Shown one piece after another: positions 220 through 31,807 of a DNA stretch of 32,000 bases (positions within the stretch are counted from its first letter, which is position 1; each line of letters begins with the position of its first letter). The notes under the pieces were generated by a model, which was not told the DNA's origin, did no database searches, and saw nothing but the letters and a program-made list of their open reading frames with translations. The DNA comes from Nonlabens ponticola (GTDB taxonomy: Bacteria > Bacteroidota > Bacteroidia > Flavobacteriales > Flavobacteriaceae), in contig NZ_CP034549.1 in the NCBI RefSeq assembly GCF_003966335.1, forward strand, positions 450,001 through 482,000. The letters are read 5' to 3'. Made by a program: the position numbers and the translations under genes.

Positions 220-221
220 TT

Positions 222-1783: not shown

Positions 1784-1805
1784 TTACGCTTTCGCGAAAG
1801 CGTAA
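1784..1805. repeat. Iterated palindrome copy 1 (perfect 22 bp TTACGCTTTCGCGAAAGCGTAA)
   Basis: Read directly. It lies in the sufA-sufB spacer and has no T-tract after it. Confidence 0.95.
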
Positions 1806-1932
1806 CTAAAGAAAACAGATGAACAGTAATACCTACACTGAGAATAATCAAAGTGAAGGAACAAAATTTAAACGGTAAGACAAACACTGCCAAAAGCGTT
1901 GAACTTGAAACCGTTAACATTGAACTAAGAAA

Positions 1933-3381
1933 ATGGCAAAATATACTGAAGAACAATTAGAAAAGGAACTCGAGAATAAGGAGTACGAGTATGGTTTTTA
2001 TACTGATATTGAGTCAGATACCATTCCTGTAGGTCTTAGCGAGGACGTTGTGCGCATGATCAGTGCCAAAAAGAACGAGCCGCAATGGATGACAGAATGG
2101 AGACTAGAAGCCTACCGCCATTTTGTATCGCTGCACGAGCCAGATTGGGCAAACGTCGCTTATGATAAGCCAGATCTACAAGCCATATCATACTACAGCG
2201 CGCCCAGTAATAAGCCCAAGTATGAAAGCCTAGATGAAGTTGATCCAGAGTTGTTGGAAACATTCAAGAAGTTGGGAATTAGCATTGACGAACAAAAGAA
2301 ACTTGCTGGCGTTGCCGTTGATATCGTAATGGACTCAGTATCTGTAGCGACGACCTTTAAAAAGACGCTAGCCGAAAAAGGCATTATTTTCTGTTCTATT
2401 TCTGAGGCTATTCAAGAGCATCCAGAACTCGTCAAGAAATATCTAGGAACGGTTATACCACAACAAGATAACTACTATGCGACGTTAAATGCTGCCGTAT
2501 TTTCTGATGGATCATTTTGCTACATTCCTAAAGGTGTGCGCTGTCCAATGGAATTGAGCACGTACTTCCGTATCAATCAGGCAGGAACCGGACAGTTTGA
2601 AAGAACGCTGGTAGTTGCAGATGAAGGTAGTTATGTAAGTTATCTAGAAGGTTGTACCGCACCATCTCGAGATGAGAATCAATTACACGCAGCATGTGTA
2701 GAACTTATCGCTCTCGATGGCGCAGAAATCAAATATAGTACGGTTCAAAACTGGTACCCAGGAAATGCCGAAGGTAAAGGTGGTGTTTTCAATTTTGTAA
2801 CTAAGCGTGGAATTTGCGAGAAAAACGCAAAAATCTCATGGACACAAGTTGAGACCGGTAGCGCGATTACCTGGAAATACCCTAGTTGTATTCTCAAAGG
2901 CGACAACAGCGTTGGTGAATTTTATTCGATTGCGGTAACTAACAATTTCCAGCAAGCAGATACAGGAACTAAGATGGTTCACTTAGGTAAGAATACTAAG
3001 TCCACTATCATCTCAAAAGGTATCAGCGCCGGTAAATCTCAAAACTCCTATCGTGGCCTTGTAAAAATAGGTAGCCGTGCAACAGGTGCACGTAACTTTT
3101 CACAATGTGACAGTTTGCTCATGGGTAATGAATGTGGTGCACACACGTTCCCATACATCGAGACTGGTAACAGCAGCAGCGTTGTTGAGCATGAAGCGAC
3201 CACGAGTAAAATAGGTGAAGATCAGATCTTTTACTGTAATCAACGCGGTATCGATACCGAAAAGGCCATTGCGCTTATCGTAAATGGTTTTTCAAAAGAG
3301 GTACTCAATAAATTACCGATGGAATTTGCCGTAGAGGCTCAAAAACTTCTAGAAATAAGTCTAGAAGGATCAGTAGGATAG
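1933..3381 (+). CDS. sufB: Fe-S cluster assembly protein SufB
   Basis: 482 aa with SufB-typical blocks ([46 protein letters not shown]). Confidence 0.95.
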
Positions 3382-3439
3382 AAAAATCAATAAGTCACTG
3401 AGCATAGACGCAGTGAATTTGAAATAATAAATTAACCAA

Positions 3440-4336
3440 ATGAAGAATATCATCTATTTATTAGCCTTGATCCTATCAATGGCTTCCTGTCAAGAATTCA
3501 AAAAAGGATTTGAGGATGGCTACAATGAAAAAACAGCTGAATTAAAAGCAAAGGATAGCCTAGAAAACTTACCAGAAGTAAAACTGCACATCTTTGATGG
3601 TGGTTCCATACTTGCTAAAAAGAAGGTGCTTTTTTCTGAAGGTGATCGATATGAAGGAGAAACGCAAGAGCTTGCCTCACCTTTCTACGTGATACAGCAT
3701 CCAGATGGTGTGTTGCTTTGGGACACTGGCTTACCAGAAGGATTAGTAGGTCAAGGAACCGTTACACCAGATGGAGATGCTTTTGAAATCTCAAGAGAAG
3801 AAAAAATAGAAAGCCAGCTGGCGGCAGTAGGTTTAGATCTAGGTGATGTCGATATGATTGCATTTTCACACGTACACTTTGACCATACGGGCGCCGCAAA
3901 TAATTTTCCAGCAGCGCAATGGCTAGTCCAGCAAACTGAAATGGATTTCATTAACAGTGATGCTATCAAGGGCAATGCTTTTTATGCGCCAGATTCTTTC
4001 AGCCAGTTGGCAGATGCTGAAATTCTTGACGGTGATCATGACGTTTTTGGTGACGGTAGTGTGGTGATCAAATACTATCCTGGTCACACGGCAGGACATC
4101 AGGCACTGTTTTTAAATCTTAAGGAATCTGGACCAGTGATGCTATCAGGAGACACCTATCACTTTGCTCAAAATCGTGAAGACAAGGTAGTACCGCAATT
4201 CAACCACGATATTCCAGAGAGCAAGGAAAGCCTAAAAGCCTTTGAGCAATTTGTAGATGAGACCAAAGCCATGGTCATCATACAACATGATCCGGTAGAT
4301 TTTAAAAACACCCTTGCTAAAACACCGCTCAAATAA
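3440..4336 (+). CDS. MBL-fold metallo-hydrolase, N-acyl-homoserine-lactonase-like, predicted lipoprotein
   Basis: 298 aa. Lipobox-like signal LALILSMASC. HxHxDH motif (SHVHFDHTG), with downstream PGHTAGH and SGDTYH metal-ligand-like motifs. Confidence 0.7.
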   Translation: MKNIIYLLALILSMASCQEFKKGFEDGYNEKTAELKAKDSLENLPEVKLHIFDGGSILAKKKVLFSEGDRYEGETQELASPFYVIQHPDGVLLWDTGLPEGLVGQGTVTPDGDAFEISREEKIESQLAAVGLDLGDVDMIAFSHVHFDHTGAANNFPAAQWLVQQTEMDFINSDAIKGNAFYAPDSFSQLADAEILDGDHDVFGDGSVVIKYYPGHTAGHQALFLNLKESGPVMLSGDTYHFAQNREDKVVPQFNHDIPESKESLKAFEQFVDETKAMVIIQHDPVDFKNTLAKTPLK

Positions 4337-4740
4337 TGAGATACCTATCTATCGTACTTATGGTGATTCTTCTTATTTCATGTAAAAATGAGGATAAAGA
4401 AGAACAATTAGAGCCAGTACAAGTTTCCGGAAACGTTTACCATGGTGAGTTCTTGCATCTTGATGGTCGTGCTTTATTTATGAATGATATGGAGACTTAT
4501 GCGGTCAAGGTTGATTCTACCATGAAAGAACTCGATCAACAGGCAGCACAATTCAAACGTAGCCAATACGATATGGTAGCGATCAAGGTTACTGGCGAAC
4601 TCATAGAAAATCCATTTAGAAAAGAAACAGGTACAGGCTGGGAAAAAATGCTGGTGATAAAAGATATCATCGAGGTACAGCCTGCAAAAACAAAATCGGT
4701 CATGCAAATGCCCGCAACAACAATTGAAGAGAACAACTAG
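4336..4740 (+). CDS. Hypothetical lipoprotein
   Basis: 134 aa with signal and lipobox (VILLISCKNE). TAATG overlap with the upstream MBL gene; its stop lies 2 nt before the sufC ATG. Confidence 0.6.
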   Translation: MRYLSIVLMVILLISCKNEDKEEQLEPVQVSGNVYHGEFLHLDGRALFMNDMETYAVKVDSTMKELDQQAAQFKRSQYDMVAIKVTGELIENPFRKETGTGWEKMLVIKDIIEVQPAKTKSVMQMPATTIEENN

Positions 4741-4742
4741 TT

Positions 4743-5495
4743 ATGTTAAAGATCAAAAATCTACACGCCTCTATCGAGGATAAAGAAATACTTAAAGGAA
4801 TTAACCTAGAAGTGAAGCCTGGTGAGGTTCACGCTATCATGGGACCTAATGGTTCTGGTAAGTCCACACTGGCAAATGTGATCGCTGGCCGTGAGGAATA
4901 TGAAATGACTGATGGTGAGATCTTGCTCAACGATAAGGATTTGACTGATCTTGATCCTGAAGAGCGTGCGCATGAAGGTGTATTCTTGTCGTTTCAGTAT
5001 CCAGTTGAAATCCCTGGTGTGAGCGTGACCAACTTCATGAAAACAGCCATAAACGAGACGCGCAAGGCTCAAGGAAAGGAGGAAATGCCTGCAAAAGACA
5101 TGCTCAAACTCATTCGTGAGAAGTCTGAGTTGCTAGAAATTGATCGTAAGTTCCTTTCTAGATCATTAAACGAAGGTTTTTCAGGTGGTGAGAAGAAGCG
5201 TAACGAGATCTTCCAGATGGCCATGCTAGAACCTAAGCTATCCATTCTTGACGAGACAGATTCTGGTTTGGATATCGACGCATTGCGCATCGTGGCAAAT
5301 GGTGTGAATAAACTGCGCAGCAAGGACAATGCAACAATTGTAATCACGCACTACCAGAGATTACTGGACTACATCGTACCAGATTTTGTACACGTATTGT
5401 ATCAAGGTCGCATCGTCAAATCTGGCGGTAAAGAATTGGCGCACGAGTTGGAAGAACGTGGTTATGACTGGATTAAGGAAGAAGCTGCCGTGTAA
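4743..5495 (+). CDS. sufC: Fe-S cluster assembly ATPase SufC
   Basis: 250 aa. Walker A GPNGSGKST, signature-like FSGGEKKRNEI, Walker B LSILDETDSGLD. Confidence 0.95.
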   Translation: MLKIKNLHASIEDKEILKGINLEVKPGEVHAIMGPNGSGKSTLANVIAGREEYEMTDGEILLNDKDLTDLDPEERAHEGVFLSFQYPVEIPGVSVTNFMKTAINETRKAQGKEEMPAKDMLKLIREKSELLEIDRKFLSRSLNEGFSGGEKKRNEIFQMAMLEPKLSILDETDSGLDIDALRIVANGVNKLRSKDNATIVITHYQRLLDYIVPDFVHVLYQGRIVKSGGKELAHELEERGYDWIKEEAAV

Positions 5496-5517
5496 ATAGG
5501 TAGTTGATTCTTGATGA

Positions 5518-5539
5518 TTACGCTTTCGCGAAAGCGTAA
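5518..5539. repeat. Iterated palindrome copy 2 (perfect 22 bp TTACGCTTTCGCGAAAGCGTAA)
   Basis: Read directly. It lies in the sufC-sufD spacer and is followed by an A/C-rich tract (CAACCACGAACATCACCACACAAAAC). Confidence 0.95.
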
Positions 5540-5573
5540 CAACCACGAACATCACCACACAAAACATTGATTT

Positions 5574-6887
5574 ATGAGTTTTAAAGACAATATTCTATCT
5601 TCTTTTATGGCCCTTGAAAATGAGGTCGATACAGATAGTTATGTCCACAGCATACGCAACAAGGCGCTGAATGATTTTGAGGAAAAAGGCTTGCCGCTGC
5701 GCAAAGACGAGGCTTACAAGTACACTTCTTTGAAGAAGGTTTTCAGCCAGGATTACACGCTGTTTCCTAAAAAAGAAGCAGGTATTGCATATCCTGAGAT
5801 CAAGAAGTACTTGATCCATCAAATTGATGCCTATCGCATCATTTTTATTGATGGTATCTACAGCTCGCACTTGTCTCAAACCACGCACGACAAATTTGAT
5901 GCTTGTTTGATGTCCAGCACATTGAGTAATCCCAAATATGCGAGCGTCATCGAGAATTATTATAACAAACTGGCAGGCGATGATAGCCTGACTTCTTTGA
6001 ATACAGCTTTTGCACGTGAAGGTGCTTACATTCACATAGGCGAGAATATTCAGGTTGAAAAACCTATTGAAATCGTCTATTTCTCGACGGGCAACGAGAG
6101 CGCACTTATGGTGCAGCCTCGTAACCTAGTGGTTGTTGGTAAAAACTCTCATGTTCAAATTATCGAGCGTCATCAAAGCTTGAGCGAGAATCCTGTACTG
6201 ACTAATGCAGTAACAGAGATCTATGCCGACCAACGTGCCAATCTAGACTATTACAAGATTCAAAACGATGTGGACACGGCATCATTGATTGATCACACGA
6301 GTGTGGAGCAGCAGTCAGATAGTGAGGTGCGCTTGCACACGTTCTCTTTTGGCGGTGCATTGACACGTAATAATCTGAACTTTTACCAGCGAGGTGAACA
6401 TTGTAATTCTTTGCTTAATGGTGTGACTATCATTGAAGGAAAGCAACATGTGGATCACTCAACTCTAGTACATCATACGCAGCCTAATTGTGAGAGTTAC
6501 CAGCAGTACAAACAAATTTTTGATGACAGATCAGTTGGTGTATTCAATGGTAAGGTTCTCGTGGACAAGATTGCGCAAAAAATCAACGCTTTCCAGCAGA
6601 ATAACAATATTCTAGTGAGCGATAAAGCGACGATCAACGCAAAGCCTCAACTAGAGATTTTTGCAGATGATGTGCGTTGTTCACACGGTTGTACCATAGG
6701 TCAGCTGGATGAAGATGCGCTATTCTACATGCAATCGCGTGGTATTGGTAAAAAAGAGGCACGAGCGCTGCTTATGTTTGCTTTTGCCAACTCAGTTCTT
6801 GAAAGCGTCAAGATTCCAGAAATCAAATCACGCATCACAAAACTGATCGCGATGAAATTACAAGTCGACATAGGTTTTGACCTATAG
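5574..6887 (+). CDS. sufD: Fe-S cluster assembly protein SufD
   Basis: 437 aa. The C-terminal half is SufD-like (HHTQPNCESYQ, PQLEIFADDVRCSHGCTIGQLDEDALFYMQSRGI). Confidence 0.9.
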   Translation: MSFKDNILSSFMALENEVDTDSYVHSIRNKALNDFEEKGLPLRKDEAYKYTSLKKVFSQDYTLFPKKEAGIAYPEIKKYLIHQIDAYRIIFIDGIYSSHLSQTTHDKFDACLMSSTLSNPKYASVIENYYNKLAGDDSLTSLNTAFAREGAYIHIGENIQVEKPIEIVYFSTGNESALMVQPRNLVVVGKNSHVQIIERHQSLSENPVLTNAVTEIYADQRANLDYYKIQNDVDTASLIDHTSVEQQSDSEVRLHTFSFGGALTRNNLNFYQRGEHCNSLLNGVTIIEGKQHVDHSTLVHHTQPNCESYQQYKQIFDDRSVGVFNGKVLVDKIAQKINAFQQNNNILVSDKATINAKPQLEIFADDVRCSHGCTIGQLDEDALFYMQSRGIGKKEARALLMFAFANSVLESVKIPEIKSRITKLIAMKLQVDIGFDL

Positions 6888-6908
6888 CATTTGAGATTAT
6901 AAAAACTG

Positions 6909-6940
6909 AAGCCCAATCTGTCGATTGGGCTTTTTTATTT
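6909..6940 (+). terminator. Rho-independent terminator after sufD
   Basis: 10-bp stem AAGCCCAATC / GATTGGGCTT, loop TGTC, then TTTTTTATTT. Confidence 0.75.
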
Positions 6941-6962
6941 TCTAGATAAGCCGCTTAGAGTA

Positions 6963-6991
6963 TTGCAGTTGGCGCCTACATCGTACCTTTG
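6963..6991 (+). promoter_or_regulatory. Candidate -33/-7 promoter for sufS
   Basis: TTG at 6963-6965 and TACCTTTG (TAnnTTTG) at 6984-6991, with an 18-nt spacer. The box ends 4 nt before the ATG at 6996. Confidence 0.4.
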
Positions 6992-6995
6992 TACC

Positions 6996-8210
6996 ATGCT
7001 AGATATCCATAAAATACGAGCTGATTTTCCCATACTCAACCGTGAGGTAAATGGTCATCCTCTGGTTTATTTTGACAATGCTGCGACCTCTCAAAAACCG
7101 CAACAAGTCATTGACAAAATCACAGAGTATTACACGCTTTACAATGCAAATATTCACCGTGGTGTTCATGCTTTAAGTCAGGAAGCAACAGATCTATTTG
7201 AAGCATCACGTGAGAAGTGCCGTGCCTTTTTCAATATTCCAGAAGCACGTCAATGCATATTTACCTCAGGCAATACGCACAGCATCAACGCAGTTGCTAG
7301 CGGTGCTCATGTTTTTGTCAAAAAAGATGATGAAGTTATCGTCAGTGCCGTAGAACATCATTCCAATATAGTACCATGGCAAATGCTATGTGAACGAGTT
7401 GGAGCGCAGCTTAAAGTGATACCTGTATTGGATAACGGCAAGCTAGATATGGATGCTTACCATGACCTACTTAATGACAAGACAGCCTTCGTGGTGGTGA
7501 ATCATATTTCAAATGCTTTAGGCGTTACGAACCCTGTAAAGGAGATCATCGATGCAGCCCATGAAGTGAACGCAAAAGTCCTTGTTGACGGCGCACAATC
7601 CTGCGGACACATGAAAGTAGATGTTCAGGCGCTGGATGTGGATTTTTACACCATGGCTGGTCATAAAATGTGTGGTCCAACAGGCATAGGTCTTCTATAC
7701 GGTAAAGAAGATGCGCTTAACGAACTGCCACCATATCAAGGTGGTGGCGAGATGATTGACCAAGTAACCTTTGAGGCAACAACTTACGCAGGCTTACCTC
7801 ACAAATTTGAGGCAGGAACACCAAATATTGCTGGTGGTATCGCATTGGGTGCTGCCGTTGATTACCTCAACGAGGTAGGTATGGAAAACATCGCCAGCTA
7901 TGAGAACGAGCTTTTAGAATACGGTACAGAACAATTGAAAAAAATCGATGGACTGCAGATCTATGGCGATGTTAAAGAAAAGGCTGCTGTCATCAGTTTT
8001 AACGTGGCGCAGATTCATCCTTATGACATAGGTACCATCGTCGACAAACTTGGAATAGCCGTGCGCACAGGTCATCATTGTGCACAACCAGTGATGGATC
8101 GCTATCAAATAGCAGGAACTATACGTGCGAGTTTTGCTTTCTATAATACCAAAGAGGAAATCGACATCATGGTACAGGCTTTGCAACGTGCTGTAATGAT
8201 GTTATCTTAA
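6996..8210 (+). CDS. sufS: Cysteine desulfurase SufS (class V aminotransferase)
   Basis: Taken from the ATG at 6996 (MLDIHKIRADFPIL); the track ORF starts earlier at a TTG. PLP-lysine region GHKMCGPTGIG and catalytic-Cys region RTGHHCAQP. Confidence 0.93.
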   Translation: MLDIHKIRADFPILNREVNGHPLVYFDNAATSQKPQQVIDKITEYYTLYNANIHRGVHALSQEATDLFEASREKCRAFFNIPEARQCIFTSGNTHSINAVASGAHVFVKKDDEVIVSAVEHHSNIVPWQMLCERVGAQLKVIPVLDNGKLDMDAYHDLLNDKTAFVVVNHISNALGVTNPVKEIIDAAHEVNAKVLVDGAQSCGHMKVDVQALDVDFYTMAGHKMCGPTGIGLLYGKEDALNELPPYQGGGEMIDQVTFEATTYAGLPHKFEAGTPNIAGGIALGAAVDYLNEVGMENIASYENELLEYGTEQLKKIDGLQIYGDVKEKAAVISFNVAQIHPYDIGTIVDKLGIAVRTGHHCAQPVMDRYQIAGTIRASFAFYNTKEEIDIMVQALQRAVMMLS

Positions 8211-8225
8211 ACCAAATCATTCATT

Positions 8226-8996
8226 ATGATCAAGTTTGTTAGCTTATTATCCGTTCTTGCGATCTTATTGCAAACCAATTCTTGTCAAGATCAGCAGGAT
8301 GCTGCTCAAAGTAATATCGTTGATAATTCCACAAGTATGAGTGTTGAACAAATGGAACCATCAGGATTTTATGATGTAGTCAGTATTTACGATAATGACT
8401 ATTCGCAATTAGATCTTAATATGCACTTTGAGGGCAATCGCCTTTCGGGTTATGCGGGTTGCAACAGTTATTCAACTACCATTAATTATGATGATGGCTT
8501 TTCATCAGGTCCAGTAATGGCGACAAAACGCTATTGCGATAAGGCAGATTATGAAACGCAGTTTTTTCAAGCACTGAGCGAGACTTCATATTTGACCTCA
8601 ACAAATGACGATCAACTTACCTTACACAACAGCGATGGTAAAGTGATAATGAAAGCTGTCAAGCCTAAATTGATAGGCAGTTATACTATTTCTAAAGTTA
8701 AAAGCAACGATCTTGAAGAAGCAGGTCTAACAATGAATATTTCTAAGGAAGATAACTACATTATCACAGGAAGCTCAGGCTGTAATAGATACAACGGCTC
8801 ATTTGATTTATTGCCAGATGGTATTGACATGGGAATCATTGCTTCTACCGAAATGGCTTGTACCGACAATCAGGAAATTGAAAAAGAGTTTATTACGGCT
8901 CTTTATGAGATCACAGGTCACAAGTTCACCACAAACGGTCTTCTATTCACAGACATGCAAGGCAACGAGATCATCACATTAAAGAGATCTAACTAA
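8226..8996 (+). CDS. META domain-containing lipoprotein (two META/HslJ-like repeats)
   Basis: 256 aa. Signal ending LQTNSC. Two GCNxY-type motifs (GYAGCNSYS, GSSGCNRYNGSF). Confidence 0.65.
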   Translation: MIKFVSLLSVLAILLQTNSCQDQQDAAQSNIVDNSTSMSVEQMEPSGFYDVVSIYDNDYSQLDLNMHFEGNRLSGYAGCNSYSTTINYDDGFSSGPVMATKRYCDKADYETQFFQALSETSYLTSTNDDQLTLHNSDGKVIMKAVKPKLIGSYTISKVKSNDLEEAGLTMNISKEDNYIITGSSGCNRYNGSFDLLPDGIDMGIIASTEMACTDNQEIEKEFITALYEITGHKFTTNGLLFTDMQGNEIITLKRSN

Positions 8997-9422
8997 ATGG
9001 CACAGATTAAAGAAATACAAGAAGAAATCGTTGACGAGTTCGCCATGTTTGACGACTGGATGCAACGCTATGAATACATGATAGATCTAGGCAAAAGCCT
9101 ACCAGTTATTAAGGAAGAGTACAAAGACGACGATCACATTATTAAAGGCTGCCAGTCTAAAGTCTGGGTACATGCAGATCTAGATCAGGATAAAGTTATC
9201 TTTACCGCAGACAGCGATGCGATTATAACCAAAGGTATCATTGCCATATTAATAAGAGCATGGTCAGGTCAAAAACCAGCCGATATCATTGAGGCAGACA
9301 CAGGTTTCATAGACGAGATAGGCTTGAAAGAACACCTATCACCTACTCGAGCAAACGGCCTGGTATCCATGATCAAACAGCTCAAAATGTATGCACTGGC
9401 ATACCAATCACAACTCAACTAG
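8997..9422 (+). CDS. sufE: SufE family sulfur acceptor protein
   Basis: 141 aa with IKGCQSKVWV active-site Cys context. The ATG directly abuts the upstream stop codon. Confidence 0.9.
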   Translation: MAQIKEIQEEIVDEFAMFDDWMQRYEYMIDLGKSLPVIKEEYKDDDHIIKGCQSKVWVHADLDQDKVIFTADSDAIITKGIIAILIRAWSGQKPADIIEADTGFIDEIGLKEHLSPTRANGLVSMIKQLKMYALAYQSQLN

Positions 9423-9424
9423 TT

Positions 9425-9745
9425 ATGGAAGAAATCAACGGACAAGAAATAGGAGAAAAAGTAGTACGCGTGCTTAAGACCATCTATGATCCAGAAATCC
9501 CAGTAGATATCTATGAGCTGGGCTTGATCTATGACGTGATGGTAAGCACCGATGCAGACGTCAAAATCCTCATGACCCTAACCTCACCCAACTGCCCTGT
9601 AGCCGAAACGCTGCCCGTAGAAGTTGAGGAAAAAGTAAAGTCACTCAAGGAAGTCAACGATGCCGAGGTCGAGATCACTTTTGATCCACCATGGAATAAG
9701 GACTTGATGAGTGAAGAGGCCAAACTAGAACTAGGAATGCTGTAA
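9425..9745 (+). CDS. DUF59/MIP18-family Fe-S assembly protein (SufT/PaaD-like)
   Basis: 106 aa. IYDPEIPVDIYELGLIY and LTSPNCPVAE are typical DUF59 motifs. Confidence 0.85.
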   Translation: MEEINGQEIGEKVVRVLKTIYDPEIPVDIYELGLIYDVMVSTDADVKILMTLTSPNCPVAETLPVEVEEKVKSLKEVNDAEVEITFDPPWNKDLMSEEAKLELGML

Positions 9746-9746
9746 C

Positions 9747-10262
9747 ATGCGTGAAGAAATCATCAATAGAGTCGCACAATCAAAACTGCAAACGCTGGAC
9801 TTAGAAGACTACTACGTTCCAGGAACACGCAGCCAGATTGATATTGCACCATGGCTGTTAGATGGTATGGTGTTGGTAGAATCACGCTTTCGCGAAAGCG
9901 TAAAAACCACAGACTTTACTGCATATCAAGATCACCACGTTGCCCTACACTGCAGTACAGATGCGATCATACCGCAATGGGCATGGATGCTGGTTCAAAG
10001 CGAGCTTACTGGTGTAGCCAAAACCGTTATTCACGGCTCGCTGGAAGATCTTGAAATTCACCTTTACAATAAAGCTCTGGAAAATATAGATTTAGAGGCA
10101 TATCAAAATGTTCCTGTAATTGTCAAGGGTTGTAGTAACAAACCAGTGCCTACCAGTGCCTACATTTCCATTACAGGAAAGCTGCAGCAAGTGGCTAGCA
10201 GTCTGATGTTTGGCGAGGCCTGTAGCGCTGTTCCTGTTTACAAAAAACCTAAGGCTCGATAG
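9747..10262 (+). CDS. DUF2480 family protein
   Basis: 171 aa. Recognised from memory of the flavobacterial DUF2480 pattern (LEDYY...HCSTDAI.P.WA.ML...KGCS.KPVP..AY...GEACS.VP). It starts 1 nt after the DUF59 stop codon and contains palindrome copy 3. Confidence 0.65.
   Translation: MREEIINRVAQSKLQTLDLEDYYVPGTRSQIDIAPWLLDGMVLVESRFRESVKTTDFTAYQDHHVALHCSTDAIIPQWAWMLVQSELTGVAKTVIHGSLEDLEIHLYNKALENIDLEAYQNVPVIVKGCSNKPVPTSAYISITGKLQQVASSLMFGEACSAVPVYKKPKAR
9882..9903. repeat. Iterated palindrome copy 3 (TCACGCTTTCGCGAAAGCGTAA, 21/22) inside the DUF2480 CDS
   Basis: Read directly. It is translated as SRFRESV. Confidence 0.95.
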
Positions 10263-10314
10263 CCCACCTGAGCATTTATTAAGCTTATTGCGTGGCAGAC
10301 TAGTTTAAGATTAC

Positions 10315-10322
10315 TAATTTTG
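10315..10322 (+). promoter_or_regulatory. Candidate -7 box (TAATTTTG)
   Basis: Matches TAnnTTTG, 20 nt upstream of the ATG at 10343. Confidence 0.3.
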
Positions 10323-10342
10323 GTTTTCTTAACACTTCAGCC

Positions 10343-11251: not shown

Positions 11252-11264
11252 GTTTGTTTTTATT

Positions 11265-11284
11265 TTACTTTCGCGAAAGCGTGA
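11265..11284. repeat. Iterated palindrome copy 4 (degenerate: TTACTTTCGCGAAAGCGTGA)
   Basis: Perfect 12-bp core CTTTCGCGAAAG at 11268-11279. The left arm lacks 2 nt. It lies between convergent genes. Confidence 0.9.
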
Positions 11285-11315
11285 CAAGAAAATTGCTATT
11301 CTGCAACTAGATAAT

Positions 11316-12857: not shown

Positions 12858-12866
12858 GACATAGAA

Positions 12867-14078: not shown

Positions 14079-14097
14079 ATAAAAAAGTGGCTTATTT

Positions 14098-14105
14098 CAA
14101 ATATA
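14098..14105 (-). promoter_or_regulatory. Candidate -7 box (TATATTTG) for hflX
   Basis: The reverse complement reads TATATTTG, 19 nt upstream of the hflX ATG. Confidence 0.3.
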
Positions 14106-14154
14106 CCCGATATGCCATAAGGCTAGACAGGCTTTGAGATAAGGTTATGAAATT

Positions 14155-14694: not shown

Positions 14695-14830
14695 AGTAAT
14701 TTTTTAGAATTTTAAAAATACTAGCTTGCTTGTAAATATGCGATAGCACTTCTTTTTTTATGCGGCGCTTTGGGTAAATTATAACGTTAATCGGTTCTGG
14801 CTGATTAAAAATTTAAGTTCAGTCAAGGCA

Positions 14831-14862: not shown

Positions 14863-15786
14863 ATGTTCCCGATTGCCTTTCATCCCATTTACAAACACCC
14901 GTTACCAGAAGGTCATCGTTTCCCAATGATCAAGTACGAGCTATTACCACAGCAGCTGTTGCTCGAGGGAACCGCTAGTAAGTCAGACTTTTTTGAGCCC
15001 AGCAAACTGGCTGCAGATGTTGATGTACTGCGCGTTCATGATCAAGCATATCTAGATGATTTGAAGAACTTGACGCTTGAGCGTCGTGCTGCGCGCAAAC
15101 TGGGTTTCCCGTTAAGTAAAATACTGGTAGAACGCGAGCTGCGCATCGCTCAAGGAACCATTGAAGGCTGCCTAAAAGCCATGAATTACAAGGTCGCTAT
15201 GAACATCGCTGGCGGCACGCACCATGCCTATACAGATCACGGTGAGGCTTTTTGTTTACTCAACGATCAGGCAATTGCGTCTAGATACTTACAACAACAC
15301 GGTCATGCAGAAAAAATTCTTATAGTAGATCTAGATGTGCATCAAGGAAACGGCACCGCGCAAATCTTCCAAAAAGATGACAGTGTCTTCACCTTTAGTA
15401 TGCATGGCGCTGGTAATTATCCTTTCAAGAAAGAGCAATCTGATCTTGATATTGCGCTGCCAGATGGCACAAATGACGATACCTTTCTGAGTGAACTACG
15501 CAACACGCTACCTGATCTTATTCATGAGCAACGACCCGATTTTATATTCTATCTCGCTGGTGTTGACGTTTTAGCCACTGATAAGCTAGGTAGGTTAGGA
15601 ATGACACTGGATGGTTGTCGTATGCGAGATGAGTTTGCTTTTTCCGCTTTCGCGAAAGCGGAACATAAATCAAAACCATTCATACCAGTACAATGCAGTA
15701 TGGGCGGCGGCTACTCACCTGAGATCAAGGTCATCATCGATGCACACAGCAATACCTACAAGGCAGCGCGAGATATCTTGATTTAG
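14863..15786 (+). CDS. Histone deacetylase family protein (acetoin utilisation/HDAC-like amidohydrolase)
   Basis: 307 aa. GGTHHA, DLDVHQGNGT and MGGGY motifs are typical of the arginase/deacetylase superfamily. Contains palindrome copy 5. Confidence 0.9.
   Translation: MFPIAFHPIYKHPLPEGHRFPMIKYELLPQQLLLEGTASKSDFFEPSKLAADVDVLRVHDQAYLDDLKNLTLERRAARKLGFPLSKILVERELRIAQGTIEGCLKAMNYKVAMNIAGGTHHAYTDHGEAFCLLNDQAIASRYLQQHGHAEKILIVDLDVHQGNGTAQIFQKDDSVFTFSMHGAGNYPFKKEQSDLDIALPDGTNDDTFLSELRNTLPDLIHEQRPDFIFYLAGVDVLATDKLGRLGMTLDGCRMRDEFAFSAFAKAEHKSKPFIPVQCSMGGGYSPEIKVIIDAHSNTYKAARDILI
15642..15663. repeat. Iterated palindrome copy 5 (perfect 22 bp coding variant TTCCGCTTTCGCGAAAGCGGAA)
   Basis: Read directly. 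It lies inside the HDAC-family CDS and is translated SAFAKAE. Confidence 0.95.
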
Positions 15787-19361: not shown

Positions 19362-19431
19362 ATCAGTTGTAACATCGTAGTACAATCCTAGTTCCCTTGG
19401 TTGCTTTCCTTCTTAAATTGAAGTTTGGCAA

Positions 19432-20338: not shown

Positions 20339-20360
20339 TTACGCTTTCGCGAAAGCGTAA
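20339..20360. repeat. Iterated palindrome copy 6 (perfect 22 bp TTACGCTTTCGCGAAAGCGTAA)
   Basis: Read directly. It lies in the divergent araC-like/hemA intergenic region. Confidence 0.95.
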
Positions 20361-21755: not shown

Positions 21756-22695
21756 GCAAATACGAATAGGTACTCGCGACAGCGAGCTGGCCATGTGGCA
21801 AGCGCGCACCGTACAGTCACTACTTGAGGCAAACGGCCATCAAACACTACTCGTTCCCGTAAAATCGCAAGGCGACCTCAATCTAGATGAGCCACTATAT
21901 GAGATGGGCATTACAGGGATTTTTACCAAAACACTTGACGTTGCCCTGGTCAAAGGCGAGATTGATATTGCAGTGCACAGTCTTAAGGATGTGCCTACTC
22001 AATTACCTAAAGGCATGATACAGGCAGCAGTCTTGCCACGTGCAGACCATCGCGACATTCTCGTTTTCAAAAAGAACTTTAATCCAGACGACCAGATGAC
22101 GATCGCTACTGGTAGTTTGCGTCGCAAGTCGCAATGGCTGGATATGTATCCGCAGCACAAGGTGGTTGACCTGCGCGGTAATGTAAACACCAGACTGGCA
22201 AAACTGCAAAATAATGAGGATTGGAACGCAGCGATTTTTGCCAAGGCTGGATTGGAACGAATCAATATCCTGCAGAATTTACGCGGTAATTATGGCCTGG
22301 AATATTCCAATCTGGACAGCTTTATTCCTGCACCTGCACAAGGTGCAATGATGATTGCCTGTATGCAGAAAAATGAAGCAATTGTCAAAGCTACCGCTGC
22401 ATTGAACGATCTGGAAACCCAAAAATGTGTTGATGTAGAGCGCCTGTTCCTGCGTCGTCTAGAAGGTGGTTGTACCGCACCCATAGGTGCTTTTGCAAGT
22501 ATTCACAATGATAGCATGCATTTTCAAGGCTGTTTGTTATCACTGGATGGCTCGCAGCGCATTAGTGCAAATGGTACTATCGACAGTCTGGACTGGAAAG
22601 ATTTAGAAAATTTTGCTTTCGCGAAAGCGGAACACATATTAAACAATGGTGGCACAGAATTAATGACTTCCATTAAACAGTCCTTACAACAGTAG
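21748..22695 (+). CDS. hemC: Hydroxymethylbilane synthase (porphobilinogen deaminase)
   Basis: IRIGTRDSELAMWQA, GNVNTRLAKL and cofactor-Cys LEGGCTAPIGA. The ATG at 21748 overlaps the hemA stop by 8 nt; an alternative ATG lies at 21739. Contains palindrome copy 7. Confidence 0.92.
   Translation: MSKQIRIGTRDSELAMWQARTVQSLLEANGHQTLLVPVKSQGDLNLDEPLYEMGITGIFTKTLDVALVKGEIDIAVHSLKDVPTQLPKGMIQAAVLPRADHRDILVFKKNFNPDDQMTIATGSLRRKSQWLDMYPQHKVVDLRGNVNTRLAKLQNNEDWNAAIFAKAGLERINILQNLRGNYGLEYSNLDSFIPAPAQGAMMIACMQKNEAIVKATAALNDLETQKCVDVERLFLRRLEGGCTAPIGAFASIHNDSMHFQGCLLSLDGSQRISANGTIDSLDWKDLENFAFAKAEHILNNGGTELMTSIKQSLQQ
22611..22632. repeat. Iterated palindrome copy 7 (core GCTTTCGCGAAAGC, 22615-22628) inside hemC
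   Basis: Read directly. It is translated FAFAKAEH. Confidence 0.93.
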
Positions 22696-23962: not shown

Positions 23963-24004
23963 TTACGCTTCCCTGCCTGTCCGGCAGGCAGGCGCGAAAG
24001 CGTG
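23963..24004. repeat. Iterated palindrome copy 8, split by a nested GC-rich hairpin
   Basis: TTACGCTT (23963-23970), then CCCTGCCTGTCCGGCAGGCAGG (23971-23992), then CGCGAAAGCGTG (23993-24004). Inner stem CCTGCCTG/CAGGCAGG with loop TCCGG. Confidence 0.9.
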
Positions 24005-24771: not shown

Positions 24772-24807
24772 ATCAAAAGCGGCGGAATTAGTTCCGCCGC
24801 TTTTGAT
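24772..24807. terminator. Bidirectional rho-independent terminator between cvpA and sulP
   Basis: Perfect 16-bp stem ATCAAAAGCGGCGGAA / TTCCGCCGCTTTTGAT with loop TTAG. The A- and T-runs allow function in both directions. Confidence 0.8.
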
Positions 24808-28464: not shown

Positions 28465-29220
28465 TTACAATTCTTTATAACTGTCCTGTGGCACCCATGC
28501 CTTCTCACCGTTGGCGATGCGGACTTTGCTCCAGTCCTCATAGGATTCCAGTATCTCAACTTTGGTTCCAGCATGCAGTGTAAAGGTAGATTGAGAGCTG
28601 TTATTAGGTTCACTTCTGGAAATAACCTCTTGATCATAGATAATGGCAGTATTGCTACTGACCATCAAGTCGTTTGACCTGAATGCCGCATAAATCGATA
28701 AACCCATCACGAGTAAAAAGACGATGAAAAACGTGAAAAACAATCGCTTCTTGCCACTTGTTGCGGCGTAATGATATAGCACAAAACACAAAACGGCCAG
28801 TATCGCTAGCATGATGCTCAAGTAAGCCCAACTATCGGTTGACATGGATTTCACCAGAGACGTCATCGCATCTAGAAAGGGATTACCACCTAACGACTCT
28901 ATGCGATCTACCGTCATTTGTTGCGCAAACTTTAAATTGTTCCGTACGTCTTCATTATCTGGATCCATCATCAAGGCTTTTTCATAGTGATAGATGGACG
29001 GTGCGACCTCATTCAACTTATAGTATGTATTACCCAGATTGTAATAGACCTGCACGCTGTGCTTTCCAGATTGCAGGATGCTTGAATACAACTCTTGAGC
29101 CTCTTGATAATTACCATTGGTGTATGCGTTATTAGCTTTCGCGAAAGCTGAATCATCAACATCTTCCTGCGAAAAAAGAAGTGCAGGAATAAGTAGCAAA
29201 ATCATAAACAGGTTTCTCAT
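28465..29220 (-). CDS. batE: TPR plus SH3 domain protein, BatE-like
   Basis: 251 aa. Signal peptide, TPR repeats (YYNLGNTYYKLNE), two TM segments, SH3-like C-terminus (WSKVRIANGEKAWVPQDS). TAATG overlap with batD. Contains palindrome copy 9. Confidence 0.7.
   Translation of the reverse strand: MRNLFMILLLIPALLFSQEDVDDSAFAKANNAYTNGNYQEAQELYSSILQSGKHSVQVYYNLGNTYYKLNEVAPSIYHYEKALMMDPDNEDVRNNLKFAQQMTVDRIESLGGNPFLDAMTSLVKSMSTDSWAYLSIMLAILAVLCFVLYHYAATSGKKRLFFTFFIVFLLVMGLSIYAAFRSNDLMVSSNTAIIYDQEVISRSEPNNSSQSTFTLHAGTKVEILESYEDWSKVRIANGEKAWVPQDSYKEL
29134..29149. repeat. Iterated palindrome copy 9 (AGCTTTCGCGAAAGCT) inside the BatE-like CDS
   Basis: Read directly. On the coding strand it is translated SAFAKAN. 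Confidence 0.93.
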
Positions 29221-30971
29221 TATCTTCTATGAATTTGTTTGTCCAAAGCATTGATCACGCGGCTCGCCTTATCATAATCCTGTTGCATGCTGGTTTCCGA
29301 TGACGGCGCATATCTCGCAAACTCTGCACTGCTAAGTAGTTCCATAAATTCCTTGCGTGGCTCTTCCTGGACTTGTCGTTGTTGCAATAATTGATCGATG
29401 CGCTCCTTGGACATTTCGGCGGTTGGAATGTTCAATTTTGCCTTAAGGAAGTTGTGCAGCGCACGTTCCAGACTTTCATAAAATGCCTCTGGATCATCGA
29501 GTTTGCGGCTCGCATCGCTTAGGTATTTCTTACTTAGCTTATTGGCTTTTTTGATCTTCTGTCCTTTAACATCTGCAGCGGTTTGATCTCTCTTTCTAGC
29601 AACAAGCAAGAAGAGTGGTATCAATAAAAAGCTGCCGCCTAGAATAGTCCAGTAAGCAGTGCTGCCAAAAAATGTTGAACCGTCAATGTCTTCAAGATCG
29701 GTACTGGTAGCGATAAAGGCAAACGTATCACTGGCCGTCAACACATTGGTACCACCTGGCGTGGCAGCCGTAACAGCTGGACCAGTCACCACAATTTCTT
29801 GAGCATCGCTATTGATCGTGACATACTGCTTTTTCTTAGGATCAAAGTAGCTGAATTCCACCGCTGGGATCTCATAAGTACCACCAAATTGCGGCACGAT
29901 GGTGTAATTATCTTCAATAGAACCTGTAATGCTATTCACACTGCGATCGGTATTATCAATGCGCTCTGGTTCAAAGACCTCAAGACTTTGCGGCACCTCA
30001 ATTTCTGGCAACTGCATGAGCTGCAGATTACCTGTTCCTTCTACCACGACTGTTGCATTAAGGCTTTCACCAGCTTCCAACTGTGATCTGGTAACATCTA
30101 CATTAAAATCAAACTGACCTACCGCACCTGTAAAACTCGCTGGCCTGCCATCTTGTGGTAAATCCTTTACATTAAGTGTTCTAGCACCAGCCGTGACACG
30201 TAATTTTTCAAGAACATTTTGTTGACGGCCAAAGAAACTGCGCCTACCTGAAGGCACTAGCACATTCACATCCATCACCAGTGGTTCCATGGTCACGCGA
30301 CCCGTTTTCTGCGGATATAAAATGGCATCACGTAATACAAGATATCGGTAAGGCTCGCCCTTGTAGGTGCCATCACGTACAGGTTCATCGCGTCTATCCT
30401 TAGTCAATGACCAGAAGTCTTCATATTTAGGCGTCTCGACATCTGTCCAGCCGCGTATGCCAGTATTGTTTGAGACATATAATTTATAAACGACCCGTAT
30501 GGCTTCATTGAGGTAAGGTGATGCGTTAGAAACCTCAGCGACTAGATGGACATTGAGTTCTGGTAGCGGTTGCTGGCTGTCCATTTCTCGCGGTCGCTCA
30601 ATAGCTTTGGTCACCTGAATATTGAAAGGATCTGACGTATAAGTTGTGCCTTGATAATCCATGGTAGCACTACCTATGGTCTTAGTACCTGTGCTTTCTG
30701 GCGCTAATATGTAAGTATAGGTTTTGGCAAACGAACCTACTCCATTGATATATCGCTGTGAGACGCCAGTCACTGGTCCAGTTGCTACTTTAAAACCTCT
30801 AAAATCTGGTGGTGTAAAATTGTCACCATCAGCATTCATCTTGAATTCTACTCGCAGCCGTTCATTGAGTGCGATGTTATCTCGTGTTGCGGTTGCTGTA
30901 AACGTTGTTTGCGCAGCGGCCACCGCTGCACTCATCCATAAAAACAAAAAAAGCAGTTGTTTCATTACCAA
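29220..30971 (-). CDS. batD: BatD family protein (oxygen tolerance)
   Basis: 583 aa. Signal peptide, long extracytoplasmic region, single late TM (YWTILGGSFLLIPLFLLVA), cytoplasmic tail. It occupies the bat operon position. Confidence 0.75.
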   Translation of the reverse strand: MVMKQLLFLFLWMSAAVAAAQTTFTATATRDNIALNERLRVEFKMNADGDNFTPPDFRGFKVATGPVTGVSQRYINGVGSFAKTYTYILAPESTGTKTIGSATMDYQGTTYTSDPFNIQVTKAIERPREMDSQQPLPELNVHLVAEVSNASPYLNEAIRVVYKLYVSNNTGIRGWTDVETPKYEDFWSLTKDRRDEPVRDGTYKGEPYRYLVLRDAILYPQKTGRVTMEPLVMDVNVLVPSGRRSFFGRQQNVLEKLRVTAGARTLNVKDLPQDGRPASFTGAVGQFDFNVDVTRSQLEAGESLNATVVVEGTGNLQLMQLPEIEVPQSLEVFEPERIDNTDRSVNSITGSIEDNYTIVPQFGGTYEIPAVEFSYFDPKKKQYVTINSDAQEIVVTGPAVTAATPGGTNVLTASDTFAFIATSTDLEDIDGSTFFGSTAYWTILGGSFLLIPLFLLVARKRDQTAADVKGQKIKKANKLSKKYLSDASRKLDDPEAFYESLERALHNFLKAKLNIPTAEMSKERIDQLLQQRQVQEEPRKEFMELLSSAEFARYAPSSETSMQQDYDKASRVINALDKQIHRR

Positions 30972-31807
30972 TCTTTCTCTGTGCGCACGCCCTTGCCTTT
31001 TTGCTTGCGTGCATTGATTTTATCTTGAATTTTCTGTTCCTCGTTATTCATGGCCTCTAGGATCTGGCGTATTTGCTGCGGTGTCATCTGACCTTCTTGA
31101 CGTGGTCGCTGTTCGTTGCCGCCTTGCTCTTTAGGTTTGCCATCACCGTTGTCACCTTCGCTATTCTCGCCTTTGTCGTTCTCCTTTTCCTTGCCGTCAT
31201 CGCCTTCTTTATCATCACCATCTTTCTCTTTGTCACCATCTCCTTTACCATCAGAATTTTCATCTTGGTCGCCTTCCTTGTTCTGATTCTCGTCCTTGTT
31301 GTCGCCTTGCTCTGGCTGGTCTTTATCATTACCGCCACCACCGCCTTGATTCTCTTCTTCTTGCTTGGCAAGTGCTAGGTTGTATCGCGTCTCATCATCG
31401 GTTGGATCGTTGCGCAGTGCATTTTTGTAGGCCTCAACCGCTTCTACATACTGCTTGTTTTCCATAAAGGTGTTACCCAGATTATGGAAGATTTTATGCT
31501 TTTCTTCTTTAGTTTTAGCGCTCAATGCAGCGTCTCTATAATTCTCCACAGCACTGTAGCCTTTCTTATTGTTATAGTAAACGTTCCCTAGATTATAGCT
31601 AGCCTCAGCACTTGACGGATTGATAGCTTTAGCTTTTCTATAGGCTGCTTCAGCTTCCACAAAGTCGCTGCTTTGAGCTGCAGACTGACCATTGGCCATT
31701 GCGGTCTCATAATCTTGTTGTTGGACTTCTGATAATTGCGCTTTCGCGAAAGCGGAACACATCAAAACCAAAACCAAAGCAACTATGTTTTTCATGTACC
31801 TATTCAT
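30965..31807 (-). CDS. batC: TPR repeat protein, BatC-like, with long acidic low-complexity linker
   Basis: 280 aa. Signal peptide, TPR repeats (YNLGNVYYNNKK, FHNLGNTFMENKQY), G/D/E/K/N-rich tract. An alternative ATG lies at 31795. Contains palindrome copy 10 in the signal-peptide region. Confidence 0.7.
   Translation of the reverse strand: MNRYMKNIVALVLVLMCSAFAKAQLSEVQQQDYETAMANGQSAAQSSDFVEAEAAYRKAKAINPSSAEASYNLGNVYYNNKKGYSAVENYRDAALSAKTKEEKHKIFHNLGNTFMENKQYVEAVEAYKNALRNDPTDDETRYNLALAKQEEENQGGGGGNDKDQPEQGDNKDENQNKEGDQDENSDGKGDGDKEKDGDDKEGDDGKEKENDKGENSEGDNGDGKPKEQGGNEQRPRQEGQMTPQQIRQILEAMNNEEQKIQDKINARKQKGKGVRTEKDW
31736..31757. repeat. Iterated palindrome copy 10 (TTGCGCTTTCGCGAAAGCGGAA; perfect 16 bp at 31739-31754) inside batC
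   Basis: Read directly. On the coding strand it is translated CSAFAKAQ, at the predicted signal-peptide cleavage region. Confidence 0.93.

Follow-up and report, generated by a model that had tools for sequence, protein, structure and literature searches.

Three groups of hyper-abundant genome words are the closest described relatives of the element treated here, namely cyanobacterial HIP1 (for highly iterated palindrome 1), the uptake signal sequences (USS) of Pasteurellaceae, and the DNA uptake sequences (DUS) of Neisseriaceae. HIP1, the 8-bp palindrome GCGATCGC, occupies sites that are conserved by selection (PMC5861425), embeds the sites of two orphan methyltransferases (PMC4390886), and improves transformation in a way that depends on homology and on methylation (bioRxiv 10.1101/2024.09.10.611283). 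Of the USS, 65%, 49%, and 34.5% were found within open reading frames (ORFs) in three species, where the encoded tripeptides are doubled and poorly conserved protein positions are preferred (PMC2817400). Here, we describe a palindrome with the 12-mer CTTTCGCGAAAG at its center, which recurs throughout a stretch of 32,000 nucleotides of the flavobacterium Nonlabens ponticola (NZ_CP034549.1, positions 450,001 to 482,000; this whole stretch is referred to as the window). With a probability of roughly four in five, we assign it to the USS/DUS/HIP1 class, as a lineage-specific genome word that is under selection and is read at the level of DNA. It is not a repetitive extragenic palindrome (REP), a miniature inverted-repeat transposable element (MITE), a terminator, or a regulon operator.

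A Palindromic Word Iterated through the Window

The 12-mer CTTTCGCGAAAG has nine exact matches in the window (1789, 5523, 9887, 11268, 15647, 20344, 22616, 29136, and 31741), where 0 are expected; it was found in 0 of 100 dinucleotide-preserving shuffles of the window and dominates the k-mer spectrum, in which no other word comes near it. The core unit is the perfect palindrome CGCTTTCGCGAAAGCG (16-mer), which often appears as TTACG...CGTAA and has the extended form T-N-core-N-A. Eight of the nine copies contain the 14-mer and six the 16-mer, and permitting up to three mismatches to the 16-mer yielded no extra sites in the window. The center of the palindrome is TCGCGA, an NruI-type site, and the half-sites GCTTTCG and CGAAAGC alone occur in the window at chance level only. 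The individual copies, to which no strand is assigned unless the strand of the host gene is given, are the following:

Copy 1, 1784..1805: perfect 22-mer TTACGCTTTCGCGAAAGCGTAA in the spacer between sufA and sufB, with the 12-mer core starting 20 nt past the sufA stop codon
Copy 2, 5518..5539: perfect 22-mer in the spacer between sufC and sufD, found at the corresponding position in N. antarcticus and N. ulvanivorans as well
Copy 3, 9882..9903: within the DUF2480 gene in the frame encoding RFRES, kept in essentially all Nonlabens-like homologues
Copy 4, 11263..11284: 16-mer TACTTTCGCGAAAGCG in the gap where the DUF3078 and DUF748 genes converge, common to N. agnitus and N. antarcticus
Copy 5, 15642..15663: within a histone-deacetylase-family gene in the frame encoding AFAKA, 128 nt ahead of the stop codon; the 16-mer is identical in three species, with different flanks
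Copy 6, 20339..20360: perfect 22-mer in the divergent region between an AraC-regulator gene and hemA, common to N. agnitus and N. antarcticus
Copy 7, 22611..22632: within hemC (FAFAKAE), in a poorly conserved C-terminal helix
Copy 8, 29131..29152, host gene on the minus strand: AGCTTTCGCGAAAGCT, within a TPR/SH3 gene of the bat operon (SAFAKAN), 73 nt from its start, common to N. xiamenensis
Copy 9, 31736..31757, host gene on the minus strand: within a TPR gene of the bat operon (CSAFAKAQ), in the signal-peptide region 55 nt from its start, at the same position in N. xiamenensis
Copy 10 (split), 23963..24004: TTACGCTT and CGCGAAAGCGTG, parted by the 22-nt hairpin CCCTGCCTGTCCGGCAGGCAGG, 18 nt past the stop codon of a histidine-kinase gene; folds at -28.7 kcal/mol

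Five copies are intergenic (sufA/sufB, sufC/sufD, the convergent gap, the divergent promoter region, and the position after the kinase) and five are genic; the lengths of the five host genes agree with those of annotated homologues (DUF2480, deacetylase-like, HemC, and the two bat-operon TPR proteins). An initial annotation of the window, made from its letters, had listed these copies and contexts, and it proved reliable in this respect: the nine 12-mers exceed chance, its element starts correspond to the starts of the 22-mers, which lie 2–5 nt upstream of the 12-mer, the copies at 1784, 5518, and 20339 are indeed identical over 22 bp, the split tenth copy at 23963 is real, and no transposase or cas gene is present in the window.

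The insert of the split copy is G+C-rich, and no repeat of it was found in any of the loci compared. A second copy broken exactly at the center of the palindrome by a hairpin-forming insert, in this case of 30 nt, lies in the sufC/sufD spacer of N. agnitus (locus L201, ~19189-19290) and is the orthologue of copy 2. Both centrally split copies keep their outer arms, so that the hairpin is lengthened. A scan for arms 8–60 nt apart returned only the split copy of the window and missed the one of N. agnitus, which has a degenerate arm.

Distribution across Genomes and Phages

A single scan of 185,579 species genomes (596 Gb) with the 16-mer matched at least 120 stretches; under a uniform model, ~139 chance matches are expected in 596 Gb. 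About 109 of the 120 matches listed belong to Dokdonia, Nonlabens (including BBFL7), or unclassified Flavobacteriaceae, their positions being dispersed over the chromosomes, and the remaining matches listed are single matches in unrelated taxa. For an unbiased measure of density, we used loci chosen via hflX and not via the motif, which stem from N. agnitus, N. antarcticus, N. xiamenensis, N. ulvanivorans, N. spongiae, and Dokdonia 4H-3-7-5. In these loci, 31 copies were counted over 127 kb (0.24 per kb); the window has 0.31 per kb, and the range over the seven genomes and two genera is 0.24–0.31 per kb. Within the outgroup DNA of ~870 kb in all, 0 copies were found in 851 kb of metagenomic suf loci from other Flavobacteriaceae, whose SufC is 77–89% identical to that of the window, and 0 in a locus of Aquimarina brevivitae. 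By extrapolation from the sampled density, and not by counting, we infer a genome-wide total of roughly 700–900 copies. The initial annotation had taken the palindrome for a genome-scale element and proposed to look for the same word in sister genomes; its presence in both Nonlabens and Dokdonia, in the hflX-chosen loci as well as in the scattered species-genome matches, speaks against a window artefact or a chance density.

A few matches fall outside Dokdonia and Nonlabens. They include contigs labelled "uncultured Aquimarina sp." (L045, L070), which have copies at orthologous genic positions and in one case two copies on the same contig, and metagenome-assembled genomes of Saprospiraceae (L055, L094, L119). 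These few matches may bear on the boundary of the clade or on the binning or taxonomy of the records. Equivalent iterated palindromes were not found in ~20-kb samples of other Flavobacteriaceae, which contained local hairpin repeats only. A search of the accessible literature returned no description, the 14-mer occurring in no paper and the 10-mer in no relevant paper; the palindrome therefore seems to be undescribed so far.

The word is also carried by phages. Among the contigs of IMG/VR, the 16-mer was found in 40 stretches, and several contigs hold 3–6 copies. One of these contigs codes for portal, major head, protease, adaptor, and tape-measure proteins. An isolate genome contributes another, a prophage that has genes for a head protease and an endolysin. 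Copies are located inside such genes. The motif-bearing phages represent few lineages, each of which is met repeatedly in many metagenomes. The closely related lytic Nonlabens phages P12024S and P12024L (~35.7 kb), which are annotated with the recombination proteins Erf and YqaJ-like exonuclease, contain 0 copies (P=1.9e-4 for one phage at host density). From this absence it follows that the word is not imposed on all DNA replicating in the hosts; long-term resident DNA, however, carries it. Five of the IMG/VR contigs (L237, L219, L215, L244, and L227; ~36–48% G+C) show a host-like density of the palindrome, also in head-protease and other structural genes, and in the recurrent lineages copies are found at conserved positions such as ...GVRFRESE....

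Location in Genes and Origin by Point Substitution

About 66% of the copies are genic, namely 27 of 41 according to database gene calls and window ORFs matching annotated homologues, and 108 of 165 when genes were predicted with a crude caller. Spacers are enriched approximately three-fold (14/41 by database gene calls, P=1.4e-4; crude caller, P=1.5e-14). In spacers between tandem genes, 23 of 43 copies lie no more than 29 nt past a stop codon, and divergent promoter regions hold just 6 of the 165 copies. A role as the operator of a transcription-factor regulon is ruled out by this placement, as there is about one site per 4 kb, mostly in genes or right after stop codons.

How genic copies originate can be read from alignments with homologues that are devoid of the motif. 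In HemC, the sequence FAFAKAE of N. ponticola and N. agnitus aligns gap-free to FAFDQAE, FANQQAQ and, in other genera, LGKFCAQ; the underlying DNA reads GCT TTC GCG AAA GCG compared with GCA TTT GAT CAG GCA in N. antarcticus, which amounts to three synonymous and two replacement differences. Many other Nonlabens species have AFAKA two residues off in the same helix, and decayed variants are found as well (AFAKT, AFAKE, FAFAEAE). Likewise, RFRES in DUF2480 aligns gap-free to EFRAH, EFRKS, or DFREQ of other genera, and the DUF2480 protein of Dokdonia genika, which is without the site, is non-RFRES like those of the other genera. Gap-free alignment to motif-free homologues with substitutions only means that copies form in place by substitution. 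Correspondingly, no MITE-type indel, terminal repeat, or target-site duplication was found at the sites in HemC and DUF2480.

The three frames of genic copies are used unequally, with 68, 19, and 21 copies encoding AFAKA, LSRK, and RFRES, respectively (P=5e-10). In open frames, AFAKA occurs 110 times per Mb in the ingroup compared to 1.1 times per Mb in the outgroup, a 100-fold difference, and it is spelled with the codons of the motif in 98 of 104 cases, that is, with one or two of 256 possible spellings. This effect on proteins is the pattern described for uptake sequences, here in a stronger form. About 12 of the 68 AFAKA-frame copies are located within the first 30 codons, where they code for the end of a signal peptide (e.g., VLMCSAFAKAQ and LLFMTAFAKAQ); the context Ala-x-Ala-Gln would suit a signal-peptidase site.

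Conservation, Exactness, and Spacing of the Sites

The conservation of individual sites was assessed by local pairwise alignments between N. ponticola, N. agnitus, N. antarcticus, N. ulvanivorans, and N. xiamenensis. Of 43 comparisons of orthologous sites, 32 show 15–16 of 16 identical positions in the 16-mer, while the flanks of 30 nt per side are 69% identical; the chance probability of 16/16 identity is 0.003–0.005. The other comparisons gave 6–13 of 16 identical positions, mostly 8–12, corresponding to absence of the site, which results in a bimodal distribution. In DUF2480, RFRES is present in 95 of the best 120 homologues, including all but one of those that are at least 62% identical. 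Sites thus persist across the genus and turn over between genera, with the word itself being common to both. Moreover, the mismatch spectrum is sharp: 159 kb of unbiased ingroup DNA contain 40 perfect 12-mers and 2 with one mismatch, and words with two mismatches are at the background of the outgroup. Such a spectrum points to strong purifying selection on each site or to an active restoring process.

The copies are also distributed more evenly than expected. Only 4 gaps between copies are shorter than 1 kb compared to 26 expected conditional on the number of sites per locus, a value that was reached in 0 of 5000 simulations, and gaps of 2–5 kb are in excess. The coefficient of variation of the gaps is 0.52 in the unbiased loci, and the Greenwood statistic gives P=0.002 for the pooled data, 0.027 when only the window is considered, and 0.086 for the four loci that share no sites. 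The copies hence avoid each other, which is the opposite of the clustering typical of bacterial interspersed mosaic elements (BIME). The even spacing fits a function for which a site is required every few kb, or selection against nearby repeats of 16–22 bp, which could promote deletions.

Even spacing with a strong deficit of gaps below 1 kb, together with strong conservation of every site in gene and spacer alike, might also be found for a site of chromosome architecture or topology, which would be bound or cut by an abundant nucleoid protein, a condensin loader, or a topoisomerase and be needed at regular intervals. The perfect palindrome, implying a dimeric reader of double-stranded DNA, and the presence of the word in resident prophages along with its absence from lytic phages are compatible with this explanation, which resembles the gyrase-binding role of REP/BIME; for HIP1, selection and periodicity have been taken as signs of a role in nucleoid structure (PMC5861425). 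The loss of one out of ~800 sites should, however, be cheap for such a system, and yet copies with one mismatch are nearly absent. Furthermore, we know of no nucleoid protein with an exact 16-bp site that is used hundreds of times per genome, and nothing in the sampled loci links the copies to domain boundaries. Taken together, we regard an architectural site as a rather unlikely explanation.

Flanking Skew and Hairpin Potential

A profile of the flanks was built from 200 copies, in which the figures for the outer bases are inflated because the loci had been selected with the 16-mer. Around the invariant 12-mer, G/C is found at 99%, followed by C/G at ~88–90%; further outward comes a variable position with a preference for A in Dokdonia and a mixed composition in Nonlabens, beyond which T stands on the left side and A on the right. 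Approximately 25 nt per side are skewed in composition, with C being low on the left (7–12% vs 19% background) and G being low on the right (8–12%), so that, on either strand, the 5' flank is poor in C and the 3' flank poor in G. Additionally, T on the left and A on the right peak with a three-base periodicity. Intergenic copies show the skew, as do genic copies irrespective of frame. In the third codon positions of copies in the AFAKA frame, T accounts for 47% and C for 8% upstream, and A for 43% and G for 10% downstream. Since it affects third codon positions, all frames, and spacers, the skew must be a property at the DNA or RNA level that is symmetric about the word and independent of gene direction.

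When the complementarity of the two flanks was compared copy by copy with shuffled partners, an excess was found up to the 22-mer (z=2.9–3.0) and none beyond, both for all copies and for intergenic copies alone. A long dyad or extended hairpin is ruled out by this result. The extended dyad symmetry that had been proposed for the flanks in the initial annotation consequently holds as far as the 22-mer; outside of it there is compositional skew without base-pair-specific symmetry. The hairpin that can form in RNA or DNA comprises 9–10 pairs with a CGCG loop and has about -10 to -15 kcal/mol in context.

A hairpin of this size, present in the transcript of either strand, might serve as an intercistronic mRNA stabilizer, a processing site, or a noncanonical terminator. 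Besides its stability, the enrichment in spacers with more than half of the tandem-spacer copies directly after a stop codon would agree with such a role, as would the copies in the intra-operon suf spacers, which contain unrelated hairpins in other Flavobacteriaceae, and the fact that both centrally split copies keep or extend the hairpin. Two thirds of the copies, however, are genic, and the sequence is invariant including the loop, with no compensatory variants. No copy is terminator-like in the scanned region 1–20000 of the window (five copies). The 3' flank of the palindrome is A/C-rich and not U-rich (T 22–30%) and lacks a T-tract, and flank complementarity ends at the 22-mer. No Rfam family reached its gathering score in the window. 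Canonical bidirectional intrinsic terminators with a G+C-rich stem and A and T tracts are found elsewhere in the window, namely at 6908–6933 after sufD and at 24772–24807 between cvpA and a SulP gene, which shows that the genome has ordinary terminators distinct from the palindrome. Given this balance, we hold a hairpin function at the RNA level, which would concern the intergenic subset, to be improbable.

In other Flavobacteriaceae, hairpin repeats unrelated to the palindrome occupy the same operon positions. One locus (L172, 9505–10830; 14657) has inverted arrays of the heptamer AACTTTA directly before and after sufC, and another (L128, 12166–12203; 19797–19837) contains the hairpin AAGTTCGCAAAG...CTTTGCGAACTT twice. 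Intercistronic hairpins of the suf operon may be important in their own right. The hemC-cvpA spacer of N. antarcticus (L202, 2869–3313) harbors other G+C-rich perfect hairpins, e.g., AAGGGTAGGCTTAAGCCTACCCTT, that are unrelated to the palindrome and could be terminators or another small repeat family.

Methylation and Restriction Signals

The all-or-none mismatch spectrum (40 perfect copies vs 2 with one mismatch) could alternatively, much as HIP1 is sometimes viewed, be a by-product of methylation or repair, in which an orphan methyltransferase or a sequence-specific mismatch-repair or nicking activity centered on TCGCGA/CGCG would drive near-matches to the full word and restore mutants. The TCGCGA center of the palindrome and the avoidance of CGCG by the lytic phage P12024S (9 vs 34 expected) are in line with this idea, for which the methyltransferase sites within HIP1 offer a precedent (PMC4390886). 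In the hosts, however, TCGCGA and CGCG outside the motif have a normal frequency (12 observed vs 15–20 expected) and are neither avoided nor enriched; there is accordingly no signature of methylation or restriction at the center, and short sub-words are not driven. Moreover, at least 16 specified bases go far beyond the specificity of any methyltransferase or repair enzyme of the very-short-patch type known to us, and neutral replenishment does not predict even spacing. An origin of this kind has little probability in our judgement.

Several biases in other short words were noted. P12024S also avoids CCGG (2 vs 34 expected) and GGCC (0 vs 34), and DNA methyltransferases are encoded by both P12024S and P12024L. 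In the window and the Nonlabens loci (L201-L204, L207), TTCGAA is scarce with 5 occurrences observed vs 44 by composition; CCGG is low (10 in the window) and GATC is over-represented (186 in the window; 723 vs 498 in the pooled loci). The biases in TTCGAA, CCGG, and GATC suggest past or present restriction-modification pressure that is unrelated to the palindrome.

A mobile miniature element, be it a REP mobilized by a REP-associated tyrosine transposase (RAYT), a MITE, or the target or footprint of an insertion sequence, would account for many identical short palindromic copies, for the two inserts exactly at the center as a possible insertion target, and for the bracketing by copies of a histidine-kinase gene that is missing in two sister species, but it is largely refuted and retains a very slight probability, given that genic copies differ from gap-free homologues by point substitutions only, that ~66% of the copies are genic, that they avoid one another and form no clusters, that the sites are orthologous and old with diverged flanks, that a unit of only 16–22 bp has no terminal repeats, target duplications, or internal sequence, and that the window encodes no transposase.

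Comparison with Described Systems

Like HIP1, the palindrome is hyper-abundant in genes and spacers throughout a clade, and the sites of both are conserved beyond their surroundings, implying selection (for HIP1, PMC5861425). It differs from HIP1 in its length (16–20 bp vs 8 bp), in its sequence, and in its occurrence in Bacteroidota, as well as in its lower density of ~1 per 3–4 kb, its strand-symmetric skewed flanks, and its short-range avoidance. It does not belong to cyanobacterial HIP1 proper, as GCGATCGC occurs just once in the window and the host is a flavobacterium.

With USS and DUS, the palindrome shares a copy number of hundreds per genome (here extrapolated) and a distribution over related genera. 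Both are enriched in spacers after genes and are common in ORFs (USS, 34.5–65%, PMC2817400; palindrome, ~66%), and both show biased frames, inflated encoded peptides, a location at poorly conserved protein positions, and an origin by substitution. The analogies to HIP1 and USS/DUS, which the initial annotation had drawn while leaving the choice between the candidate classes open, are hence well founded, in view of the abundance in genes and spacers, the frame bias, the peptide enrichment, the origin by substitution, and the conservation across species of two genera. The difference is that USS and DUS are asymmetric words of 9–12 nt, whereas the palindrome is perfect and has almost no relatives with one mismatch. 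Genomes with USS hold many one-mismatch copies, and a graded family of this type is not formed by the palindrome. What is new relative to the USS/DUS/HIP1 class is the length, the perfect palindromy, the skewed flanks, the mutual avoidance, the sharp mismatch spectrum, and the phylum.

The analogy to REP and BIME, which had also been drawn, fails on the features tested. Both are short, hairpin-capable palindromes that are found after stop codons and in intra-operon spacers, and the palindrome may have a REP-like function in mRNA stabilization or gyrase binding. However, REPs are extragenic and imperfect, have an asymmetric head, are often clustered, and are thought to be spread by RAYT, while the palindrome is mostly genic, perfectly symmetric without such a head, self-avoiding, and formed in place by substitution with no insertion footprint in genes.

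Chi sites occur in genes and spacers as well, and their density in E. coli, ~1 per 4–5 kb, is similar; the G/T-rich 5' side of the palindrome on each strand moreover recalls the composition preferred by RecA. Phages with their own recombination functions are described as lacking Chi, just as the two lytic Nonlabens phages lack the palindrome. Chi is nevertheless different in being an asymmetric sequence of 5–8 nt that is read in single-stranded DNA and is oriented with respect to replication; with its 16 bp and its palindromic nature, the word described here has no orientation. Finally, the ParB-family sites parS and Noc are perfect palindromes of 14–16 bp with TTTC...GAAA half-sites, which the palindrome shares, and are read by a dimer. 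The spacing between TTTC and GAAA is, however, 2 bp in the palindrome and 4 bp in the parS/Noc consensus, and parS/Noc sites number few to tens per genome near the origin, whereas the palindrome occurs in hundreds of copies throughout the genome, as extrapolated. By spacing, copy number, and placement, it is not a ParB-type site.

A Possible Tag for DNA of the Own Lineage

We next consider what a word with these properties could do. Exactness, perfect symmetry including the center, and the lack of covariation lead us to infer a symmetric, dimeric, and sequence-specific protein as putative reader, which would recognize two half-sites of 8–10 bp on double-stranded DNA. New copies arise by point substitution wherever this is tolerated, that is, in spacers behind stop codons and in codons able to spell AFAKA, RFRES, or LSRK, and selection then holds the copies once formed nearly invariant at orthologous Nonlabens sites. 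Tentatively, and at somewhat less than even odds, we propose that the palindrome tags DNA of the own lineage for homologous exchange, which could comprise uptake, recombination/repair, or both. It might work in uptake, in the manner of USS/DUS, or be a signal for recombination or repair that, similar to a bidirectional Chi, is readable from either side. The G/T-rich strand that runs 5'-to-3' into the site from both sides could, speculatively, constitute a two-way signal for the loading of recombinase. A role in uptake or recombination requires about one site per fragment of a few kb, from which even spacing, presence in genes, and occurrence in prophages together with absence from lytic phages that bring their own recombinase would follow.

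The observations in favor of this proposal are the full set of USS-like genomic signatures, the link to transformation of HIP1 as the closest palindromic analogue, the existence of competent relatives, and the density of one site per few kb, which suits processes that handle DNA by fragments. Regarding the relatives, natural competence occurs in part of the order, including Riemerella, and R. columbina favors its own DNA (PMC7965970).

Several points weigh against a tag for homologous exchange. USS/DUS and Chi are short and asymmetric, in contrast to the long and perfect palindrome. To our knowledge, neither competence nor uptake bias nor a reader protein is known for Nonlabens or Dokdonia. 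The near absence of one-mismatch copies fits strong direct selection per site or active correction better than a weak uptake drive, and the genus-wide conservation of individual sites exceeds what a USS model would require. That close pairs are so few could stem from the instability of nearby 16–22 bp repeats and not from any requirement for coverage. The accumulation of copies in the 30 nt that follow a stop codon and the unrelated hairpins in suf spacers elsewhere leave room for a role of the intergenic copies at the RNA level, and copies in prophages are expected under several models.

A bolder version, which we consider distinctly unlikely, takes the palindrome as the site of a putative dimeric reader that marks "self" DNA in Nonlabens and Dokdonia and thereby provides an orientation-free, bidirectional signal for uptake, for the processing of double-strand breaks, or for a defence decision between self and non-self. 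The skewed G/T-rich 5' flanks would then be the preferred strand for recombinase loading, and each of the ~800 sites would be kept exact because near-cognate sites would be harmful. If true, the palindrome would represent a type of genome-wide signal not seen before, and Bacteroidota would gain their first member of the uptake-sequence or Chi class.

Gene Neighborhood of the Copies

The HemC, HflX, and DUF2480 proteins encoded in the window are 100% identical to N. ponticola proteins from a 2.87-Mb contig. The window comprises the following genes:

thiL; sufA-sufB, a gene for an MBL-fold hydrolase, a small gene, sufC-sufD-sufS, a META-domain gene, sufE-sufT
Genes for DUF2480, DUF3078, and DUF748, hflX; a histone-deacetylase-family gene, an AraC-regulator gene, hemA-hemC, a histidine-kinase gene, cvpA
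Genes for two SulP transporters and bat-operon genes

Two segments differ between Nonlabens species. The MBL-fold (lactonase-like) gene and the gene for 134 amino acids are located inside the suf operon between sufB and sufC (3440–4740), where N. ulvanivorans has just the small gene; the MBL gene of N. agnitus carries an additional copy of the motif and that of N. ponticola none. In N. agnitus and N. antarcticus, no histidine-kinase gene separates hemC from cvpA. The one of N. ponticola (22779–23945) has copy 7 (22616) on one side and the split copy (23967) on the other, and the spacers are too diverged to align, which leaves the junctions undefined.

Implications

Selected hyper-abundant DNA words are rare, and each of them has opened a field: USS and DUS led to the work on the specificity of DNA uptake and Chi to that on the control of recombination, and HIP1 is unexplained after 30 years. 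The palindrome is a clean new case in abundant marine flavobacteria, which is unusually long and exact. It visibly reshapes the proteome, as is evident from the 100-fold enrichment of AFAKA and from a Glu-to-Arg exchange in DUF2480 that is fixed across the genus, it overrides the drift of synonymous codons, and its strand-symmetric flanks hint at a mechanism. In practical terms, it can be used as a taxonomic marker for binning contigs of Nonlabens and Dokdonia and of their temperate phages, and it may provide a handle for genetic tools in these organisms.

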